In this document: positions 25 to 59,180 of the stretch, in pieces
Layout: each line of letters opens with the position of its first letter
Numbering within the stretch: the stretch's first letter is position 1
Assembly (NCBI GenBank): GCA_036383735.1
Contig: DASVNS010000240.1
Location: forward strand, 8,520-72,519
Direction: 5' to 3'
DNA: 64,000 bases
Source of the DNA: Phenylobacterium sp.
GTDB lineage: Bacteria > Pseudomonadota > Alphaproteobacteria > Caulobacterales > Caulobacteraceae
Made by a program: the position numbers and the translations under genes
Notes under the pieces: model-generated
The model's input: the letters and a program-made list of their open reading frames with translations, nothing else
What the model was told of the DNA's origin: nothing
Database searches by the model: none

Positions 25-1962
25 CTAGACCCGAGCCGCGGCCTGGGCACGGCGGCCCGCCGCCCAGAACCCGACCACGACCGCCGTCAGCGTCAGGAGC
101 TGGGCCACGAGCCCTTCCCAGGTCGGGAACACGCCGAGGACCTCGATGCGGGGCAGGGCGGCTAGGGGCCGCACGTCCAGCATCCCCGCCTCCTGCAGCC
201 CGGCCACGCCCTTGCCTGCGAGCACGATCGCGAGCACGGCGATGAGGATCGAGCTGTAGGAGAAGAATTGCGCGATGGGCAGGCGCTTGCTGTAGCTGAG
301 CAGCGCCCAGGCGATCACCGCCAGGCAGATCAAGGCCAGCGCGGCGCCCGACAGCATGGCCACCAGTCCCCCCTGGCTCCAGAGCGCGGCGTAGAAGAGG
401 ATGGTCTCAAAGACCTCCCGATAGACCACGATGAAGGCCAGGAGGAACAGGAACCAGGCCGAGCGCTTCGAAAGCGCCGCCGAGAGCTTGTCGCGGATGT
501 AGACCTGCCACGCGCCGGCCTGGGCCTTGCCGTGCATCCAGACGCCGACGGAGATCAGCACGACCGCTGAGACCAGCGAGCCCACCCCCTCGGTGAGTTC
601 ACGGCTCGCGCCACTGATGGAGATCAGGTAGGTGGCGGCCGCCCAGGTGAGGCCGCCACCGACCAAGGCCGCCACCCACCCGGCGTGGACGTACGGCAGC
701 ACGTCCTGCCGTTCGGCCTTGCGCAGGAAGGCGATCATCGCGATCACGATCAGCAGGGCCTCGACGCCTTCGCGCAGGAGGATGGTGAACGCCCCCAAGA
801 AGGTGGAGACGGCGCTGGCCTGCTCTGGCGCCAGCGCACGGGCGGATTCATCGAACAGGGCCTCGAGCCCACGGACACGCGCGGCCACCTCGGCGGGCGG
901 CGCGCCCCGGTTAAGGCTCGCCCGCAACTCGCCCATGGCGCCCTCGACCCTGGCCATCAGCGCGCCGTCGCGCGCCCGTAGCAGAGGCTCCACGGGCTCA
1001 AAACCGTCGAGATAGGCCGATAGGGCCAGCTCCTCGGCGCGCTTGCGCTCGCCGGCCTGGTAGGCGGCCAGGCTCTCGGCGAGTTTGCGGCGCGCCACCT
1101 CCAGTCCTCCGGGCGACGAGGTCTTGAGGGTTTCGGGGTGGCGCCGCAGATAGGCCATCAGCTGAGTCGCCTGCGGTTCGCCCACCGTGGCGGCCAGCGC
1201 GGCGGGGGTGGTCTGAGTCAGGACCTGCAGGTCGGGGACGCTGGCCCGCAGATCGGCGCGGCCGCGCCAGGCCTGCTCGCCGGCGCGTTGGGCGTCCGGC
1301 GAATAGGCGAGGCTCCCCACATAGAAGGCGAGCGCCCAGCGGTCCTCGGACGACAGATGGGCGAAGCTCGCCATCGCCGTGCCGTCGAGACCCTGACCGA
1401 TCACTTGGTACAGCCCGAAAAGGCTGCGCTCCTTGGCCCGAGCGATGTCGGTGAAGGCGATTGGCGGCGGGTCCAGCCTCTCGGCGCCGGGGCCGTCGCC
1501 GCGGCCGCTCACCCCATGACAGGAGGCGCATTGTTCGGCGTACAGCGCCGCGCCCCTCGTCAGGTCCGGCGCCTGACGTGGCGCAAGCGGCACGGGGTAG
1601 GTCTTCAGCAGGTCGCTCGCCAAGCTACGGGCCTGGAGCGCCACGGCGGCGGGATCCGCTCTGCGGTCCACTGCGACGGCGAGCGCGGCGGCTTCGGAGA
1701 GGAGCTGCGGCTTGGCTGAACTCGGCGGTAAGGCGGCGATCCGGCTGCGCACGGAGGCGGAGAACTCGCGCATCTCGGCGTACTCGGCGTCGCTGATGAT
1801 CCGACCGCCGGAGACTGCGCCCGCGTAGTCCACGGCGATGTAGTCGAGGAGGCGCCACGCCACTTCTGCTGAGGGACCCGCCTCCTGCGCTCTGGCGGTG
1901 AGGGGAAGTTGGGCGGCCATGACGAGGGCGACCGCAAGGAAGAGGCGAGCGAGCGCCGGCAT
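25..1962 (-). CDS. Cytochrome c/FTR1-family permease (PbrT/EfeU-like)
   Basis: CASCHG heme motif; FTR1 motifs LREGVE and YREVFE; ATG 1962 preferred over TTG 2001 because the -10 lies at 2004-2009. Confidence 0.9.
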   Translation of the reverse strand: MPALARLFLAVALVMAAQLPLTARAQEAGPSAEVAWRLLDYIAVDYAGAVSGGRIISDAEYAEMREFSASVRSRIAALPPSSAKPQLLSEAAALAVAVDRRADPAAVALQARSLASDLLKTYPVPLAPRQAPDLTRGAALYAEQCASCHGVSGRGDGPGAERLDPPPIAFTDIARAKERSLFGLYQVIGQGLDGTAMASFAHLSSEDRWALAFYVGSLAYSPDAQRAGEQAWRGRADLRASVPDLQVLTQTTPAALAATVGEPQATQLMAYLRRHPETLKTSSPGGLEVARRKLAESLAAYQAGERKRAEELALSAYLDGFEPVEPLLRARDGALMARVEGAMGELRASLNRGAPPAEVAARVRGLEALFDESARALAPEQASAVSTFLGAFTILLREGVEALLIVIAMIAFLRKAERQDVLPYVHAGWVAALVGGGLTWAAATYLISISGASRELTEGVGSLVSAVVLISVGVWMHGKAQAGAWQVYIRDKLSAALSKRSAWFLFLLAFIVVYREVFETILFYAALWSQGGLVAMLSGAALALICLAVIAWALLSYSKRLPIAQFFSYSSILIAVLAIVLAGKGVAGLQEAGMLDVRPLAALPRIEVLGVFPTWEGLVAQLLTLTAVVVGFWAAGRRAQAAARV

Positions 1963-2003: not shown

Positions 2004-2034
2004 AGAATACATGCTCAAGCCACTAGAGGATCAA
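2004..2034 (-). promoter_or_regulatory. MerR-type (CadR/PbrR-like) promoter/operator for the FTR1 gene
   Basis: TTGATC-19 bp (CTCTAGTGGCTTGAG dyad)-TATTCT. Confidence 0.8.
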
Positions 2035-2075
2035 GAGCTCCCCCTCCGAACATACGAAAAACGCGTCGCAACGGC

Positions 2076-2106
2076 TTGATCCTCTAGCCGCTAGAGCAAG
2101 TAGGGT
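2076..2106 (+). promoter_or_regulatory. MerR-type (CadR/PbrR-like) promoter/operator for the CDF operon
   Basis: TTGATC-19 bp with perfect dyad CTCTAG-CCG-CTAGAG-TAGGGT. Confidence 0.85.
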
Positions 2107-2128
2107 GGCGAGATCAGGAGGACTTCGC

Positions 2129-3001
2129 ATGTCGAGCACGACAGCGGCCGCCGAGACGCTCCGTTACCGGGTCACCGGCATGGACTGTTCGAGCTGTGCC
2201 GAGAAAATCCAATCCGCGGTCGCCAAGCTGCCCGGCGTGGAAGAGGCGCGGGTGTCCATCGCATCGTCGATGATGACCTTAAAGGTCGACGACGCGGCAA
2301 GACGGACGCCCGCGGTCGAAGCGACGGTGACGGAGCTCGGCTACCATCTCGACCGCGAAGGAAGTCCGGCTAAGGCCGACGACGATGAACTTCCGAAGGA
2401 CCTCAGCCACATCACGCCGGCCTATCGGCGGGCGCTATGGATCGTGGTGCTGATCAACGTCGGCTACGGTTTGGTGGAGATCGTCGCCGGCTTCGTCGCA
2501 CGCTCCCAGGCGCTGAAAGCCGACGCCCTCGACTTCATGGGCGACGGGCTGATCACGTTCTTGGGTCTGCTGGCGATCGGCTGGTCGCTCGTCTGGCGCG
2601 CGCGCTCGGCGCTGATCCAAGGTCTCTTCCTCGCGGCGCTCGGCGTCGGGGTGCTGCTGAACACGGCCTACCGCGTCCTCGTGCTGAACCAGCCGGAAGC
2701 CGAGCTCATGGGCGCGTTCGGTATGATCGCGCTCGTGGCCAACGTGGCCGCGGCGCTCGTCCTGATCCCGCACCGCGCCGGAGACGCCAATGTCCGCGCG
2801 GTCTGGCTCTTCTCGCGTAACGACGCCCTAGGCAACGTGGCGGTCGTGATCGCCGCCGGCTTGGTGTTCTGGACCAAGACCGCTTGGCCGGATCTCGTGG
2901 TGGCCGTGATTATTTCGGGGCTCTTCCTGCAGTCCGCCTGGTCGATCATTCGCGACGCCCGCACCGACCTGCGGGAGGCGCGGTCGCTGAGCCCCGCGTG
3001 A
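2129..3001 (+). CDS. HMA-domain + CDF cation (Cd/Zn/Co/Pb) efflux transporter
   Basis: N-terminal GMDCSSC; CDF motifs SQALKADALDF and SRNDALGN; AGGAGG SD before ATG 2129. Confidence 0.9.
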   Translation: MSSTTAAAETLRYRVTGMDCSSCAEKIQSAVAKLPGVEEARVSIASSMMTLKVDDAARRTPAVEATVTELGYHLDREGSPAKADDDELPKDLSHITPAYRRALWIVVLINVGYGLVEIVAGFVARSQALKADALDFMGDGLITFLGLLAIGWSLVWRARSALIQGLFLAALGVGVLLNTAYRVLVLNQPEAELMGAFGMIALVANVAAALVLIPHRAGDANVRAVWLFSRNDALGNVAVVIAAGLVFWTKTAWPDLVVAVIISGLFLQSAWSIIRDARTDLREARSLSPA

Positions 3002-3008
3002 ACGTCGG

Positions 3009-5285
3009 ATGAGACGGCTTCCGCCACCCTCGGCGCGTGGCGCGGCGCCAAACGGCCCGCCACCGATTTTGCCCGCCTTGCAGCAGGCGGTCGCGCATGC
3101 GAACGCCGGCCGATGGACCGAGGCCGAGCAATGCGCCCGAAGGGTGCTTGCGGCCAAGCCGTTGGACCCCTCAGCGCTGAATGTCCTCGGCACGGTCGCC
3201 ATGAACACAGGTCGCTCGGCCGAGGCGATCGGGTGGTTTCAACAGGCCGCGGGCGGCCAGGCGAAGAACCCGTTCATCCAATTCAATCTGGGCGAAGCCC
3301 ATCGCCGGCTGCAGGCCTATGAAATCGCGGCGAAGTTCTTCCAGCGCGCTGCGGCGCTGAAGATCGACTTTGCGGACGCTTACGCGTCGGCTGGCGACGC
3401 TTACCGTTTGATGGGGCAGGGGACGGATGCCGAGCGCTGCTACCGCGCCGCCTTGAAACGGGCGCCGGCAATGCTCGCCGCGCTTAACGGTCTGGGCCTC
3501 TTACGCCTGCAGCACGGCGACGCCGCCGCGGCTGCGGAGCGCTTCGAAGCCGGCTGCAAGGCGGCGCCGGCGGGCCATCCCCTGCGTCCGATCCTGCTCG
3601 CGAACCTCGGCCTGGCGCGCCTGCAACTCGGCTACGGCCCGGACGGGCTGGCCCTGCTCGCGCAGGCTGTGGAGGCCGGGCCCCAGGACGGCGACGCCTG
3701 GCGGCGCCTGGCCGGCGCGCTGCGCCACACCCGCGTGGCGCCCACGACAACCGGCTTCAGGGACATCCTGCTGCAGCTGTTCGACCGGCCTGACGTCAAC
3801 CCCCGCCACCTAGCGACCGCGGCCATCGCCGTGTTGCGGCAGGATCCAGAGATCGACCAGCTCCTGGAGACGATCGCCCAGGCCCCCGCCGACCTTGCGC
3901 ACACGCTGGAGCGCGAGGCGGCGACGGCCTCACGGCTGATCCAGGATCGCCTGTTCCGGGCCCTGCTCGCCTCCGCACCCGTACCGGACGTGGCCATCGA
4001 ACTGACGCTCGTCCGGCTGCGGACCGACCTACTGAACCTGACGGATGGCACGGCCGACGCTCTCGAAGAGGAGCTCGGCCTCGCGATCGCGCTGGCCCGA
4101 CAGGCGTTCCTCAACGAATACGTCCTGTTCGCCGCGCCGGCCGAGCAGGCCCGTGTGGCCGACCTGATCACGACCCTCGATCGTGAGGACATCGGAGGGC
4201 AGGCCGGCGACCTCACCAAGATCGCGATCGTCGCCGCCTATCGCCCGCTGGCCACAACGCCGCTCGCTGTGCGGCTCCAGGGCTCCGCCCTGCCGGCGCT
4301 CGCCGAACTCCTTCGCGAACAGCTCAGCGAACCGGCGGAGGAAGCCGAACTGCGCGCGCAGCTGCCGGTTCTCAAACCACCCACCGACATCATCTCGCGC
4401 GCTGTCCAGCAACAGTACGAGCAGAGCCCTTACCCTCGCTGGACCCGCTGCAGCCTCGGTGAGCCGTTGCCCTTCGGACGAGCGATTCAGAGCGCATTAC
4501 CTGACCTGTCGGCCGGAGAGATTCCAGATCTCGACCGCCCCCGCGTGCTGATCGCCGGCTGCGGCACGGGCCTCGAGACCATGCGTGTGGCGACCACCTA
4601 CCGCGGCGCCGCGATCCTGGCGATCGACCTCAGCGCGGCCAGTCTCGGCTACGCCATGCGCAAGGTTCGCGAATACGGGCTTGCCGAGGTGGAACACCTG
4701 CAGGCCGACATCCTGGACCTGCCCACGCTGGCGGAACGGTTTGACCTGATCGACAGCTTCGGCGTGCTGCATCACATGGCCAACCCGGCGCAGGGCCTCG
4801 AGGTCCTTGCCGGGCTCCTGCGGCCAGAGGGGTTTCTCTTCGTCGGCCTCTACAGCGAAATCGGCCGACGCGCGGTCGTCCAGGCGCGCGCCCACATCGC
4901 CCGCGGAGGTTACCGAGACGATCCGGATGGCATTCGCGCGCTGCGGCGTTCCTTGATGCTCGACGGCGCGCCGCCGGCGCTGGACGGCGTGATGAGCCCC
5001 GCATCGGACTTCTGGACCCTTTCGGACTGTCGCGACCTCCTATTCCACGTGAACGAGCATCGCTTCACCCTTCCGCAGATCGGCGAGATGCTTAGCGCCG
5101 CCGGTCTTGAGTTCCTGGGCGTGCAATTTGGCCACGCCGCCGACCGCACGCGTTACGTCGCGCAGAACACCGGCTCCGGCGCGCTGCGCGATCTTGCGCG
5201 ACTGCACCGCCACGAACTCGAGCATCCAGAGATCTTCGGGGACACCTACCGGCTCTGGGCCCGCCCAAGGAGGCCGTCCACGTGA
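3009..5285 (+). CDS. TPR-repeat class I SAM-dependent methyltransferase
   Basis: N-terminal TPR repeats; QYEQSPYPRW, VLIAGCGTG, GVLHH, RDLLFHVNEH motifs. Confidence 0.85.
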   Translation: MRRLPPPSARGAAPNGPPPILPALQQAVAHANAGRWTEAEQCARRVLAAKPLDPSALNVLGTVAMNTGRSAEAIGWFQQAAGGQAKNPFIQFNLGEAHRRLQAYEIAAKFFQRAAALKIDFADAYASAGDAYRLMGQGTDAERCYRAALKRAPAMLAALNGLGLLRLQHGDAAAAAERFEAGCKAAPAGHPLRPILLANLGLARLQLGYGPDGLALLAQAVEAGPQDGDAWRRLAGALRHTRVAPTTTGFRDILLQLFDRPDVNPRHLATAAIAVLRQDPEIDQLLETIAQAPADLAHTLEREAATASRLIQDRLFRALLASAPVPDVAIELTLVRLRTDLLNLTDGTADALEEELGLAIALARQAFLNEYVLFAAPAEQARVADLITTLDREDIGGQAGDLTKIAIVAAYRPLATTPLAVRLQGSALPALAELLREQLSEPAEEAELRAQLPVLKPPTDIISRAVQQQYEQSPYPRWTRCSLGEPLPFGRAIQSALPDLSAGEIPDLDRPRVLIAGCGTGLETMRVATTYRGAAILAIDLSAASLGYAMRKVREYGLAEVEHLQADILDLPTLAERFDLIDSFGVLHHMANPAQGLEVLAGLLRPEGFLFVGLYSEIGRRAVVQARAHIARGGYRDDPDGIRALRRSLMLDGAPPALDGVMSPASDFWTLSDCRDLLFHVNEHRFTLPQIGEMLSAAGLEFLGVQFGHAADRTRYVAQNTGSGALRDLARLHRHELEHPEIFGDTYRLWARPRRPST

Positions 5286-5860
5286 CCCAGCCAGTCTCGC
5301 CGCCGCATGTCGATCTTCCGAAGGAGCAACGGGCCGTCGTGCGGCAAGCGCTCCTGGCCTTCGCCGTCTGCGGACCGACCCTGGTGCTCGCGAGCCTCGG
5401 CCTCCCGAGGATCTTCACGTTCCCGGAGGGGCTGGCGGAGCGTCTCGCCTTCGCGCATAGGGCCGACCTCGTGATCGCGCTTTGGGTCGTGCTGGGCGTG
5501 CGGATGGTCGCCAAGGTGCGGTTCAGGTCTGCCGAGGACAACGCCGGTTCGGCCTACAGCCGGCCGAGTGCCCGCCTGGCGGTGCCGAAGGCCTTCCTGC
5601 AGAACACCCTCGAACAGGGGTTCATCACAAGCGTCGCCATCCTCGCCCTCGCCACCGTCGGCGGCGAAGCGGCGCTTGCCTATATTGTCGCGACCGTCGT
5701 CCTCTTCAGCCTCGGGCGCGCGACCTTCCTGCGCGGCTATCCGCACGGGGCCGGCGGTCGCGCCTTCGGCATCGCCACGACGGCGCTTCCAGCGATCGGC
5801 GCCTATGGCTGGGTCCTCGTAGATATGGCGTCCGACGTGGCCGGCCTGGCCGCGGGCTGA
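5282..5860 (+). CDS. MAPEG-family membrane protein
   Basis: 4 hydrophobic segments; FLQNTLEQ and GRATFLRGY...RAFG motifs; GTGA overlap with the upstream gene. Confidence 0.8.
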   Translation: MTQPVSPPHVDLPKEQRAVVRQALLAFAVCGPTLVLASLGLPRIFTFPEGLAERLAFAHRADLVIALWVVLGVRMVAKVRFRSAEDNAGSAYSRPSARLAVPKAFLQNTLEQGFITSVAILALATVGGEAALAYIVATVVLFSLGRATFLRGYPHGAGGRAFGIATTALPAIGAYGWVLVDMASDVAGLAAG

Positions 5861-5882
5861 GCGACTGCCCCAACCCGCAGGG

Positions 5883-7244
5883 TCAGTCCGCAAGCGGGAT
5901 GACCTCGCGAAACTTGCCGCCACGGCCCTGCTCCGGCGGCTCGCCCCCGCGCTCGAGCGCCACCTGTTCGAGCCCATGCTCGGCAAACACCTTGCGCAGG
6001 CCTGCTTCGGCCTCGCGCCAGATGGCGTCCCCATTCGCCGTCGGCGCGATTTGCAGGCGTATTTCAACTTTTTCCGGCGCGGTTTGCGCGATCTGGAAGA
6101 GCGTGACCCCGCGGACCGCTTCGATCGGTTGACTGAGCGCCAGCGGAGGAACCCTGACCTCGCCGCGCGGTGTGCGGAAGGTGAGAACGTCGGCCGACCG
6201 CCCGCGTACGCGGATCGCGGGCAGGGGGTTGCCGCATGGGCACGGGTCGGGCCGTTGAAGCACGCTATCTCCAAGATCGTAGCGCAGGATCGGCTGCACG
6301 CGGTTGGCGAGATTGCTGATCAGGACCGTGTGCGATTGCTCGCCCGGAGCCACCGGCCGATAGTCAGCGTCAACCGGCTCGAACGCTACCCAGTCGGCGT
6401 TCACGTGCAGCCAGCCTTCGCCGCACATGGCGCTCATGAACATGCATTCCGAGGCGGCGTAGCTGTTGCCCACCTTGGCGTCGAACAGCCGCGCAATTCG
6501 GCCGTATTCAGCCTGCGGCAGGCCCTCTGCAGAAAGAGCCAGCAGCACGGGATGGATGGCGAGCCGGCCGGCCTCCTGCTCGTTAGCGAGCATCGCGGCT
6601 ATGCTGGCATAGGGCGCAAGCATCGCCGGCTGGAAGCGATTCAGACGATCGACCAGTTCAGTCATCGGCATGTGCGCCGAAAGCACCTCGAGGCGTTTTC
6701 CCTGCCGTTTCTTGAGGCGTGCGGCGGCGACGGCCGAGGCGAAATGGCCACCCGTCGCCATGACCATCGCAGTCCGCCCGCGGCGCGCGATGATCTTGAG
6801 GATATCGCCCGCACTGAGCCAGCCACCGATCCAGCGGAGCATCATGGCGGTCACGACCGCCATCGTGCGATCGTCGGCCAGGAATATCCCGCGCCGGCCG
6901 GTCGTGCCCGAGGTGGTGTAGAGCGTGTATTTTTCCAGGAACCGCTCACCGAGCCGAGCCGGATCGTCGACAACGGCCTCCGTGGCTTCGAGCGTCACGG
7001 CGCGGTCGGTGCACCAGTCGTCGAAGCGCTCCATGAGCATCTTCTTGTCGATGACGGGCAGGGCGACCGGGTCTTCGATGCGGTCCGGAAGGTCGCGGTA
7101 GAGCTCGCGGTAGTAGGGCGAATGATCGCGCGCAAACGCGACCATGTCGGCGAGACGGGCGCGCTGGCGGCGCTCAATGCCCACCCGGGCGCCTTTGGCC
7201 GCTCTCCGCGTATCGAACAGTATGCTTAGGATGTTCTCAGACAT
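5883..7244 (-). CDS. Phenylacetate-CoA ligase/CapK-like adenylate-forming enzyme
   Basis: SPYYRELY, TTSGTTG P-loop, YAASE, LRYDLGD, GRSAD motifs. Confidence 0.85.
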   Translation of the reverse strand: MSENILSILFDTRRAAKGARVGIERRQRARLADMVAFARDHSPYYRELYRDLPDRIEDPVALPVIDKKMLMERFDDWCTDRAVTLEATEAVVDDPARLGERFLEKYTLYTTSGTTGRRGIFLADDRTMAVVTAMMLRWIGGWLSAGDILKIIARRGRTAMVMATGGHFASAVAAARLKKRQGKRLEVLSAHMPMTELVDRLNRFQPAMLAPYASIAAMLANEQEAGRLAIHPVLLALSAEGLPQAEYGRIARLFDAKVGNSYAASECMFMSAMCGEGWLHVNADWVAFEPVDADYRPVAPGEQSHTVLISNLANRVQPILRYDLGDSVLQRPDPCPCGNPLPAIRVRGRSADVLTFRTPRGEVRVPPLALSQPIEAVRGVTLFQIAQTAPEKVEIRLQIAPTANGDAIWREAEAGLRKVFAEHGLEQVALERGGEPPEQGRGGKFREVIPLAD

Positions 7245-7269
7245 CAGGGTCGGCCTCCGATGGCCGGGA

Positions 7270-7300
7270 AGCCTACGGCCTCAAGCCGCTAGAGGATCAA
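7270..7300 (-). promoter_or_regulatory. Third CadR/PbrR-like promoter/operator, driving the ligase
   Basis: TTGATC-CTCTAGCGGCTTGAGGCCG(19)-TAGGCT, near-identical to 2004-2034. Confidence 0.8.
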
Positions 7301-7490
7301 GCCGCCTGTCGCGCGCGCGTCACAACACGGCCAACGACCGTGGCGAGGAGCCCGGGCCTCCGACGCGGCCGGATCGATCCGCGCCTGCCCAGGGTATAGC
7401 GCCTCAACAAAAAAAGCTGCAGATGTTCCTTGCTATAAGTTATTGAAATCACTCGCTAATTTCCGATAAGATACATTAGACGCGTCACGC

Positions 7491-8318
7491 CTAGCACCTC
7501 CGAAGCGAGGCCAGAAACTCGCCGATCGCTGGCGCGAAAGCATCCGCAAAATCCTCTGCCGTGCGGATCTCGTCAGAAATGCCGAGCGCCGCCAGTCGGC
7601 CGCTCGGCAGAAGCCTGGAGAGGTGTTCCGCGACGGCGGCCGGATGTCGATTGTCCATGCCAGGGAAAATCAGCGTCGGCGCTTCGATCGCCGCCAGCTC
7701 CTCGATGTGCCTGAAGGCCCGATCATACCCGATGGCCGCAGCCGCGGCGAGGCTGGCGGCGTCCGATCGTGGGATGGCGTCTCGCACCATCGTCCCGATG
7801 ACCGGCGCCAAGTCCGGAAGGATCGGGGCCCAGCCCGCGTCGATCCCGCGCTCGCGGACGCGGGCGGCGAACTCATCCATGAATACGATTTCGGCCGCTT
7901 TGGCGTCGTCGTCCTCGATGTCCTCCACACTCATGAGGATCAAAGCGCCAATCCGATCGGGATGCGCCAGCGCCGCCCGCAGTGCAATGGTTCCGCCGAG
8001 GCCCGCCCCGCCGATGGCCGCCCGCTCGACGCCTATGTGGTCCAGCAGCGCGATCAGATCGCTGGCGTATTGCGACCAGGTGTGGCGTGAGGCGTCTGGG
8101 CAGACCGAGCGTCCATAACCGCGACTGTCCGGAAGCCATATCGTCTGACGATGGGATAGGCGTCCGGCGAGCGGGAGTAGGCTTTCGTGATCGGGACCTC
8201 CCCCGTGCAGCAACACCACAGGCAGGTCGGAACCGCGGTCCATTGCGCCGCAGGCTTGGGTCTTGGCGCAGAACAGCGGCCACCCGTCCGCGCCGCCATA
8301 AGTGAATGTGTCAATCAA
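7491..8318 (-). CDS. Alpha/beta hydrolase fold protein (nucleophile Ser apparently replaced by Gly)
   Basis: VLLHGGG, PDSRGYGRS, GGAGLGG elbow, PTLIFPGMD. Confidence 0.8.
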   Translation of the reverse strand: MIDTFTYGGADGWPLFCAKTQACGAMDRGSDLPVVLLHGGGPDHESLLPLAGRLSHRQTIWLPDSRGYGRSVCPDASRHTWSQYASDLIALLDHIGVERAAIGGAGLGGTIALRAALAHPDRIGALILMSVEDIEDDDAKAAEIVFMDEFAARVRERGIDAGWAPILPDLAPVIGTMVRDAIPRSDAASLAAAAAIGYDRAFRHIEELAAIEAPTLIFPGMDNRHPAAVAEHLSRLLPSGRLAALGISDEIRTAEDFADAFAPAIGEFLASLRRC

Positions 8319-8911
8319 AACTGACCGGCTCCTGGCTGAACCTGAAGTCCTAAGCCGGACAACGTCATTCTGACGAGCCGATGGACCGCAGCTTCCGACC
8401 GCAAGGCGCTCGCGGCCGACAGCGCGTGAAGACAGTAGATCGCCTGCTCGTCAGGCGCGACATCGTGCCGGAGGTCTCCGGCCGCCTCCACTTCGGCAAG
8501 CAGGTCTTTGACGAGGTCGCGAAGGCGATCCTGCGCCCGGGTCACGTGCTCCCCCCGATGCAGCCGCGAGACGAGTTCCGCGCCATGCTGACCGCGGTTG
8601 TAGGCGATCATCGCATAGGCCTGGAGGACGGCGCTGAGCCGCCCACGCGCGTCCCCCGCACCATTCCGAAGCGCAACGAGCTGCTCGAGATGGCCCGTCA
8701 CATGGCGCTCGTGCCAGGCGGCCAGGATCGCCTCCACATCGGGATAGTACTTGTAGAGCGTGGCGCGTCCGATGCCGGCGTGGCTGGCGATCTGCGCCAT
8801 CGTCACGGACGGTAGCCCGCGTTCACGGACCAACTCCCAAGTGGTCTCCAAAATCGCCTCGCGCACCGCGCGGCGATGCGCCTCGATCGTCTCGCTCCAG
8901 AGCTTGGGCAT
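8315..8911 (-). CDS. TetR/AcrR-family regulator
   Basis: HTH VTMAQIASHAGIGRATLYKYY. Confidence 0.92.
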   Translation of the reverse strand: MPKLWSETIEAHRRAVREAILETTWELVRERGLPSVTMAQIASHAGIGRATLYKYYPDVEAILAAWHERHVTGHLEQLVALRNGAGDARGRLSAVLQAYAMIAYNRGQHGAELVSRLHRGEHVTRAQDRLRDLVKDLLAEVEAAGDLRHDVAPDEQAIYCLHALSAASALRSEAAVHRLVRMTLSGLGLQVQPGAGQF

Positions 8912-22798: not shown

Positions 22799-22829
22799 GT
22801 GATGGGGCTTCCCACGGTGGGAAGGTCAA
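22799..22829 (-). promoter_or_regulatory. CueR promoter for copAB
   Basis: TTGACC-TTCCCACCGTGGGAAGCCC(19)-CATCAC. Confidence 0.85.
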
Positions 22830-33449: not shown

Positions 33450-33453
<4 letters not shown>

Positions 33454-33884
33454 ACATTGGTCAGGCGTCGAAGGCGTCCGGCGTGACCACCAAAATGATC
33501 CGCTACTACGACGAGATCGACTTGGTGCGGCCGGCGAGCCGGACGGGCTCGAACTACCGCGAATACGATCATCGCCAGATCAACGAGCTGCGCTTCATCA
33601 AGCGCGCCCGCAGCCTGGGCTTCTCGATGGAGGAGATCACTCAGCTCCTGTCGCTTTGGCGAGACCGGGCTCGTCCGAGCCGCGAAGTGAAGGCGATCGC
33701 CGACAGGCACGTGGCGGACCTCGACGCCCGCATCGCCGAGATGCAGGCGATGGCCGACACCCTGCGGCACCTTTCACACTGCTGCGCCGGCGACGATCGG
33801 CCGGAGTGCCCGATCCTCGCAGATCTGATGGACGGCAAGGAGCCATCGGAGCCTGTTGGACGGCGGCGCTCCTTCAATCACTAG
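33450..33884 (+). CDS. cueR: Cu(I)-responsive MerR regulator CueR
   Basis: [13 protein letters not shown]; [12 protein letters not shown]. Confidence 0.95.
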
Positions 33885-58600: not shown

Positions 58601-58826
58601 CCTCGCGCGCGGGACGTGAAGTCTCCGCTTCGCTCCGACCGGCCGGGGGGTCTCCCCGACCTTCCTCCCTTCGGTCGTGCAGGCCGGGTGATCCCCCTCC
58701 CCCCGGCCGCGTCCCACTTGCTACCCCCAGCCTCGCCGGCGGGCAGGGGTGCAGGGCGGGGCCTGCACCCTGCCTTCCACGAAGGACCTTGCCATGACCG
58801 CAAGGGCCCAGCCGGAGACGAACGCC

Positions 58827-59180
58827 ATGCAGACTAGCGAGCTCGCCCGCCGCGCCCAGCTCACCACCCGCCAGGTGCGCCACTATGAACGCGAAGGCCT
58901 CATCGGGGGCCGCCGCGACGAGAACGGCCACCGCGACTATCCGCCGGAAACCGCATCGGTCGCCCGGCGCATCGGCCACCTGGTGGACCTCGGATTTACG
59001 ACGGGCGAGATCCGCACCTTCATCGACCGGATCTCACCACCCGCCGCTGGCGCAGCATCCCCCAAGGAGCTGCTGCATCGGCGCGAGCGGCTGGCCAGGA
59101 TCGACGCGACCATTGAGACCCTGCGCGCCACCCGGGCCGAGCTGATGGAGCTCTTGGTGAGCGACGTCCTGGACGCCTAG
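58827..59180 (+). CDS. MerR-family HTH protein without Cys ligands
   Basis: SELARR...RQVRHYEREGLI..RRDENGHRDY. Confidence 0.85.
   Translation: MQTSELARRAQLTTRQVRHYEREGLIGGRRDENGHRDYPPETASVARRIGHLVDLGFTTGEIRTFIDRISPPAAGAASPKELLHRRERLARIDATIETLRATRAELMELLVSDVLDA

Follow-up and report, generated by a model that had tools for sequence, protein, structure and literature searches.

A 64,000-nucleotide stretch of Phenylobacterium sp. DNA (the window; positions 8,520 to 72,519 of contig DASVNS010000240.1, hereafter C240) carries three near-identical MerR-type operator-promoters, one of which faces the gene of an adenylate-forming ligase (Table 1). On the basis of sequence comparisons, we consider it probable that these sites belong to a single Zn/Cd/Pb export regulon, carried on a conjugative element and read by a regulator encoded on another contig of the genome (C30), in which the ligase would be an optional member that adenylates a lipid-like acid for envelope upkeep. 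That the ligase truly belongs to such a regulon, as an optional member, we hold to be very likely. The operator and its transport targets are already known; the new part is the ligase as a regulon member, its dedicated operator, and the pairing between operator sequence and recognition helix of the regulator.

The pattern TTGATCCTCTAGNNNCTWGAG has three perfect matches in the window, at 2014-2034 (-), 2076-2096 (+) and 7280-7300 (-), and a scan allowing up to three mismatches added none; shuffled sequence gave a mean of 0.05 matches, with none of 100 shuffles reaching three. Each site reads TTGATC-CTCTAG-N3-CTWGAG-N4-(-10), and the distance between the -35 and -10 boxes is 19 bp in all three, within the 19-20 bp typical of MerR-type promoters (a generic promoter scan with 16-18 bp spacers is blind to such sites). 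The first-pass annotation of this DNA, which had reported three operators with a constant 19-bp spacer and set them apart from the CueR box, is thus confirmed: the two CueR-type boxes of the window, at 22829 (-) and 30883 (+), read TTGACC TTCCCA...TGGGAA and are clearly unlike the three sites, none of which fits the CueR box ACCTTCC-N7-GGAAGGT. It had also called the sites CadR/PbrR-type. This holds as far as the MerR type goes; the motif is the one published for Alphaproteobacteria as 'CadR-PbrR-like', not that of CadR/PbrR proper. In the accessible part of that work (Korostelev et al. 2016, PMC5045206), the CCTCTAG dyad is given as the motif of CadR-PbrR-like MerR regulators, and the sites share with those of the window a CCTCTAG-N3-CTAGAG dyad between the promoter boxes and a 19-bp spacer. 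The placement of this type of dyad directly after the -35 box agrees with the rows of its supplements S1 and S2; in S2, 22 of the 24 occurrences of CCTCTAG lie outside the two CadR-PbrR rows, and 21 stand on the CadR-PbrR-like sheet, including ones from Brevundimonas and Rhodospirillum.

Over the whole genome, five sites have at most one mismatch. Besides the three of the window, a fourth (one mismatch) lies at C240:6192, about 2.3 kb to the left of it, and precedes an lspA signal peptidase II gene (C240:6192-6763), a usual regulon member of the PbrC/CadC type; the fifth, a perfect site at C30:9756, precedes a short CDF gene. Among family genomes, the operator pattern is present in 40 of 251, and the reversed pattern in none of the 251.

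The operator is conserved in front of the ligase. We collected 79 ligase loci from GTDB, 16 of them close (at least 76% identity), and an independent metagenome set of 80 loci, comprising 18 close and 52 distant loci with readable upstream DNA and 10 without upstream sequence. An operator-promoter lies directly upstream of the ligase in 16/16 close GTDB relatives and in 18/18 testable close metagenome relatives, the opposite of the outcome that the first-pass annotation had named as refuting it (no motif in front of close orthologues). It is also present in 8 of the 52 distant metagenome loci; among the other 63 GTDB loci it lies directly upstream in one (L059), and before an ATPase gene upstream of the ligase in three. 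Phenylobacterium loci have a dyad of the CTC type; the CTG type occurs in Xanthobacter, Reyranella, Chelativorans, Stappia and sphingomonads. Loci L030 and L031 are mosaics, in which promoter and coding region come from different lineages and were swapped by recombination: for most of its length, the L031 coding region shares 85-96% identity with the CTGTAG group, yet its operator is of the CTC type of the host family. Often the regulator gene is the immediate divergent neighbour of the ligase, an arrangement classic for MerR, and it lies within 200 bp of the ligase in 11 of 80 dereplicated clusters. The ratio of non-synonymous to synonymous substitution rates (dN/dS) of the ligase is 0.08-0.18 (six pairs; dS is saturated in the two most distant). 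A DUF6639 gene with its own CTGTAG operator stands beside the ligase in four loci (L021:5969-6763, L023, L026 and L029), another uncharacterised regulon member.

Metal-resistance genes surround the ligase well beyond its close relatives. A metal marker lies within 7 kb of the ligase in 52 of the 79 GTDB loci, against 4.1% of its own genome, a background taken from one fragmented genome; in the metagenome set, the count is 64 of 80 loci, and 56 of the 58 with at least 5 kb of flank. Such loci include kin and are not independent; after dereplication, the marker is present in 68 of 80 clusters at 90% identity and in 24 of 32 at 70% identity. Homologues beyond Alphaproteobacteria (50-65% identity) sit in ATPase/CDF/Czc clusters, often under ArsR, in Chloroflexota, Acidobacteriota, Planctomycetota, Actinomycetota, Bacteroidota and Nitrospirota, as well as in Myxococcota, Verrucomicrobiota, Gemmatimonadota and Caldisericota; the clusters of these distant homologues encode Zn/Cd/Pb/Co efflux under MerR or ArsR regulators. 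On an Arthrobacter plasmid, the operon runs arsR-ATPase-lspA-ccdA-cadD-ligase, which repeats the link with a regulator from an unrelated family, and loss of the plasmid is described, in the accessible text of PMC2751784, as making Arthrobacter FB24 sensitive to Pb, Zn and Cd. Among 54 ATPases near the ligase, counted with the Arthrobacter ATPase as query, 13 are P1B-2-like, 28 have an (A/S)PC+HE type motif, 13 gave no motif call and none has the Cu+ motif; judging from these motifs, the pumps that neighbour the ligase are divalent-metal types. Many neighbouring P1B ATPases (L033, L036, L043-L054, L070-L075 and others) carry the motif pair (A/S)PC and HE(I/V/L/A)(S/A)E. P1B-4 ATPases are characterised by the pair SPC/HEGT, and the ATPases with the former pair possibly form a distinct subclade. 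In a phylogeny made with the quick version of IQ-TREE, on which metal labels were set by hand from the neighbourhood searches and plasmid annotations, 54 of the 56 metal-labelled rows fall in one clade together with two unlabelled rows, and the label changes 4 times, against 24.9 times when shuffled. Archaeal and Bacillota plasmid homologues (about 40% identity) are mixed: a P-type ATPase neighbour, an arsR-methyltransferase-ccdA-lspA region, and one without any metal gene.

The window itself contains no CadR-type regulator, as had been noted at first. Its MerR genes encode CueR (33450-33884, above the NCBIfam cut-off) and a MerR-like helix-turn-helix protein (58749-59180), located between the relaxase gene and parB, which lacks the metal-binding cysteine triad. 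The regulator had been expected to the left, and a candidate is found on C30, a contig that probably adjoins the left end of C240. C30 terminates in the N-terminal half of CzcB and C240 starts with the C-terminal half, with about 58 codons between, and on a P. zucineum plasmid the genes follow one another in this order too (regulator, cdf, hypothetical, czcC, czcB, czcA), so that the regulator gene probably lies some 12 kb left of the window, on contigs that do not overlap. The candidate is a 147-aa MerR protein (C30:9157-9600) with a KVPTIRFY helix, divergent from the perfect fifth site; the genome thus encodes a putative cognate regulator with the matching recognition helix. Its C80, N84, C116 and C123 align with CadR and PbrR, as in divalent-metal MerR sensors, which combine a conserved asparagine with three cysteines, the first where the dimerisation helix begins and the other two in the metal-binding loop; the cysteines act as ligands (PMC11672702, accessible part). 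Its best match is the CadR/PbrR equivalog TIGR02047, at 107.3 bits, below the cut-off of 151.45; it has no His tail (only H55 and H75), and hence no second, His-rich Cd site of the P. putida type. For these two reasons, induction by Zn is taken to be as plausible as induction by Cd or Pb. With this refinement, the first-pass reading of a metal-responsive regulon that would take in the ligase is supported. Regulators of this type are named ZntR in Brucella and Agrobacterium. Since zntA of S. meliloti has Zn, Cd and Pb as inducers (PMC4932525, accessible part), 'Zn/Cd/Pb' is a safer label than 'toxic metal'.

Operator and recognition helix go together. Among 30 family loci picked by their operator, a regulator of the C30 type is nearby in 25, and the helix K(V/I)PTIRF occurs in 24/24 readable regulators beside a CTC(T/A)AG..CTWGAG dyad; regulators with an ETIRY helix pair with a CTGTAG..CTACAG dyad. 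C30 encodes a second MerR protein (C30:4855-5295) with an ETIRY helix, whose best match, MerR, is below the cut-off. Because this ETIRY system has its own CTGTAG-N3-CTACAG promoter (C30:4830, facing a small membrane gene), the genome appears to hold two insulated three-cysteine sensor systems, and the pairing (KVPT versus ETIR) would define two separate metal-sensor channels in one genome. Close to the candidate regulator gene, on its upstream side (C30:9635-9653), there is a further perfect dyad, which has no TTGA -35 box and is likely an autoregulatory site.

The ligase itself has no Pfam match, and every NCBIfam match is below cut-off: the best, TIGR02304 (F390-synthetase-related), reaches 124.5 bits against 251.9, about half; the coenzyme F390 synthetase family gives 22.2 against 458.7, and phenylacetate-CoA ligase (NF041878) 32.5 against 700, so that the protein classes neither as an F390 synthetase nor as PaaK. 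Its structural model (predicted local distance difference test score, pLDDT, 88.6) matches the PaaK structural clade (PaaK1/2, BT_0428, HCL, NatL2/AjiA1/ClxA) at Z 26-29 and 14-22% identity, with Z 28.9 to PaaK1 and BT_0428 and a tie in fold between coenzyme A (CoA) ligases and NatL2/AjiA1. It shares with these enzymes an N-terminal helical microdomain and the adenylation motifs A3 (P-loop 111-116), A5 (E266), A7 (D326), A8 (R349) and A10 (K444), which together with the fold place it in the PaaK clade of ANL enzymes; E266, R349 and K444 are present in 56/56 aligned sequences, D326 in 55/56. It differs from them in a length of about 450 aa with extra helices at 125-153, in its A5 motif (YA(A/S)xE, theirs YGxxE) and in its context, which is metal efflux and no catabolic or natural-product cluster. 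Some neighbouring Atlas clusters do carry CapK_C in 13-14% of their members, as in TIGR02304/CapK-like proteins, but neither the score nor the surroundings of the ligase, without polysaccharide or F420 context, fit that family. The initial reading as a PaaK/CapK-like ligase is thus right about the structural clade; the protein forms a separate clade of its own and is neither PaaK nor CapK itself. At least 2,949 proteins match its profile at E <=1e-40.

A Cys3His zinc site (C274/H280/C335/C337), spaced as in NatL2, is invariant in 56/56 aligned sequences. According to the accessible part of PMC7204872, this site holds an essential structural zinc in NatL2, and the aryl ring stacks on Gly237-Ser238. 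The position of Gly237 is Ala in 41 of the 56 aligned members and in 112 of the 120 top homologues, and most non-metal actinobacterial copies retain Gly. Ala at the stacking position weakly disfavours a simple aryl acid as substrate.

Per 80 clusters, the recurrent neighbours that are not transporters are LspA (33), a small methyltransferase (15), CYP152 (14), ICMT-like proteins (14), CcdA (12), Lgt/Lnt (10) and MAPEG (9), and the CYP152 fatty-acid alpha-hydroxylase lies within 1.2 kb of the ligase in 9 of its 14 clusters. Because most of these partners have fatty acids, membrane lipids or lipoprotein cysteines as substrates, we prefer a lipid-like acid and a role in envelope upkeep, and rank it as likelier than chelator synthesis and CoA/organic-acid handling. 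Our best single guess, a tentative one that falls short of an even chance, is that the substrate is a fatty or alpha-hydroxy fatty acid used for lipid or lipoprotein repair. CYP152 (P450SPalpha-like) recurs in Zn/Cd efflux clusters, often beside the ligase (L024:4459-5763, L160, L164, L165, L183, L208 and others), a setting for which our literature search found nothing. In several loci of Chloroflexota and Rubrobacter, an ICMT gene stands next to that of the ligase. Fusions with a Na/Ca exchanger, TauD, an acyltransferase and ICMT are single sequences each, and were not used as evidence.

Two other metal-induced roles are considered, both unlikely. The ligase could build a small-molecule chelator, as a CoA-independent amide or ester ligase like NatL2/AjiA1 whose product is finished by a neighbouring methyltransferase dependent on S-adenosylmethionine (SAM). 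Its closest solved relatives by profile are indeed the ester- or amide-forming AjiA1, ClxA and NatL2, and the small class I methyltransferase counted above is often the adjacent gene. However, genes for precursor supply, a carrier or export do not recur beside the ligase, which is often a single gene behind its own promoter, and its catalytic lysine is near the C-terminus, with no obvious sign in the sequence of an extension of the NatL2 type, a domain-swapped C-terminal stretch that locks the closed form. Alternatively, it could work as an ordinary CoA ligase on acyl or aryl acids, keeping the CoA/thiol pool protected or in balance, or clearing an organic acid that brings metal into the cell. 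The fold, tied at Z 27-29 between BT_0428, PaaK1, HCL and NatL2, leaves room for this, and outgroup homologues beside TetR regulators (11/79 loci; L017) suggest an ancestral organic-acid role. Against it stand the low identity to those enzymes, the scores below every NCBIfam cut-off, the pocket glycine that is mostly Ala, and the context: no paa catabolic cluster recurs among the ligase neighbours, and TIGR02155 has no match in the ligase's own genome, which is 89% complete. As no paralogue was found in that genome, at this completeness, a simple backup of a housekeeping PaaK was rejected.

Several observations weigh against an envelope-directed regulon member. Close ligase copies are rare: 3 of 401 family genomes have one, a sample of 400 other genomes of the class has none, and only 1 of 30 sampled family operator sites precedes a ligase; given also that the operator is present in 40 of 251 genomes, the ligase appears dispensable for resistance. 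Core metal markers are absent from 27 of the 79 GTDB homologues, mainly Bradyrhizobium and TetR-linked Streptosporangiaceae (actinobacterial); three of these marker-less homologues (L082, L084 and L088) have ArsR close by. The metal clade has a Shimodaira-Hasegawa approximate likelihood ratio test (SH-aLRT) support of only 80 in the quick tree, and pocket residues differ within it (ATGGHFAS versus A.GTP.AT). The ICMT-ligase fusion (P0020, 667 aa) is a single sequence. Since none of its partners is obligatory, the ligase may work by itself; CYP152, Lgt and Lnt are all missing from the regulon of the window.

These points could be taken further, to make the ligase a passenger of metal-resistance islands whose operator is a copied relic or incidental, and which has no part in metal tolerance. 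In favour of this, the gene is patchily distributed and found on mobile elements, many close loci are near-copies of one element, and non-metal homologues exist. We nevertheless find this very improbable: the operator is kept in 34/34 testable close relatives, while flanks are only about 50% alike between operator types, the ligase occupies varied operon positions under two regulator families in some ten phyla, and it is under purifying selection. That it is mainly a metal sink through its invariant Cys3His site, with catalysis secondary, is hardly credible, since the same site has a structural role in NatL2 (PMC7204872, accessible part) and is retained by non-metal homologues, a 453-residue protein with a single site would sequester little metal, and the catalytic residues are conserved just as strictly.

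The preferred reading, an export regulon with a lipid-directed ligase, would work as follows. A metal-free dimer of the C30 regulator would hold the over-spaced promoters off; metal binding at C80/C116/C123 would untwist them, a mode of regulation established for MerR proteins (PMC5045206, accessible part), and switch on together pbrT, cdf-methyltransferase-MAPEG, lspA, cdf-czcCBA and the ligase. The ligase would then convert its acid with ATP-Mg to an acyl-AMP, the acyl group passing to CoA or straight to an amine or hydroxyl, and the product could serve lipid or lipoprotein repair under metal stress, with LspA, Lgt, Lnt, CYP152, ICMT-like proteins and MAPEG. More speculatively, and on balance doubtful, Zn/Cd/Pb efflux regulons across about ten phyla may carry an unrecognised lipid-enzyme arm, in which the ligase, CYP152, ICMT-like methyltransferases, MAPEG and spare lipoprotein-maturation enzymes would chemically remodel lipids or lipoproteins of the envelope; carboxylates or thiols that bind metal might, for instance, be capped. 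If true, this arm would represent heavy-metal resistance by covalent modification of the envelope, not by transport or sequestration.

In the pbr regulon of Cupriavidus, PbrR reportedly controls a PbrT-like permease. The Cupriavidus pbr/cad regulons (CadR-cadA-cadC/LspA-cdfX; PMC11580412, accessible part) share with ours a three-cysteine MerR regulator, a short CDF and LspA. In contrast, their dyad is unlike that of the window, no P1B-2 ATPase was found in the window's regulon, and the latter has extra enzyme members, namely the ligase, the methyltransferase with tetratricopeptide repeats (TPR) and the MAPEG-like protein. The alphaproteobacterial survey retained only sites beside a regulator or before known metal genes, and the word 'ligase' does not occur in the accessible part of its main text (PMC5045206). 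A term search likewise returned no mention of a ligase in the accessible parts of PMC5045206, PMC11580412, PMC2751784 and PMC11672702, nor in PMC6975044 with 12 of its 17 supplements, and a full-text search of the literature found no description of such a ligase in a metal operon; its coverage is incomplete, and absence from print is unproven. Accounts of divalent-metal resistance deal almost wholly with efflux, sequestration and precipitation. The ligase is likely an overlooked accessory metal-resistance enzyme: an ATP-consuming enzyme that repeatedly has a predicted metal-responsive promoter of its own, its gene often being the first one divergent from the regulator, suggests a metabolic step worth paying for under Zn/Cd/Pb stress. 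Hundreds of clade members are automatically labelled 'phenylacetate-CoA ligase' or 'F390 synthetase', names that are probably wrong.

Table 1. Operator-promoters of the window and the genes they face
Feature	Position	Strand	Remarks
Operator-promoter 1	2004..2034	-	-35 TTGATC, dyad CTCTAG-TGG-CTTGAG, -10 TATTCT; faces pbrT-like gene
Operator-promoter 2	2076..2106	+	-35 TTGATC, dyad CTCTAG-CCG-CTAGAG, -10 TAGGGT; faces HMA-CDF/TPR-methyltransferase/MAPEG run
Operator-promoter 3	7270..7300	-	-35 TTGATC, dyad CTCTAG-CGG-CTTGAG, -10 TAGGCT; 25 nt before ligase ATG
PbrT-like permease (cytochrome c + FTR1)	25..1962	-	Behind promoter 1
HMA domain fused to short CDF exporter	2129..3001	+	Behind promoter 2
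TPR + class I SAM methyltransferase	3009..5285	+	7 bp after CDF gene; same order in L018 and L097
MAPEG-like membrane protein	5282..5860	+	Overlaps methyltransferase stop codon; just below Pfam cut-off; recurrent regulon member
PaaK-clade adenylate-forming ligase, 453 aa	5883..7244	-	Behind promoter 3

The window belongs to a conjugative element (RepA, VirB/VirD4, a relaxase and ParAB), and its copper genes form a block of their own (copCD, cusCBA, copAB, two P-type ATPases and cueR). Domain searches agree with the targets that the first-pass annotation had given to sites 1 and 2, the PbrT-like permease and the HMA-CDF; the latter is presumably CdfX-like. The permease likely starts at ATG 1962, because the alternative TTG at 2001 would fall at or before the point where transcription from promoter 1 is expected to begin. 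The TPR-methyltransferase and MAPEG-like genes are probably driven by site 2 as well, co-transcribed with the CDF gene. The ligase and MAPEG genes converge 22 bp apart (5852-5883), and a scan found no terminator between them. In relatives this gap is about 1.2 kb (L018), or 3.8 kb with an IS21 (L097), and includes a DUF302 gene; because the gaps of L018 and L097 are longer and gene-bearing, the short one looks like a lineage deletion. On the other side of the ligase, positions 7400-7490 are AT-rich, homology with relatives stops at about 7484, and a tetR-alpha/beta-hydrolase pair of lower G+C content at third codon positions follows; this is likely an insertion boundary. We rejected the ligase as the tail of this upstream tetR-hydrolase unit (7491-8911), as homology with L018 and L097 ends there and neither the tetR nor the hydrolase gene has a tblastn match in any fetched locus. 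In other family members (L124, L133, L116-L121), the same operator heads further genes, which include class I methyltransferase-like and ICMT-like genes (both assigned by eye) and lspA-MAPEG-regulator operons.

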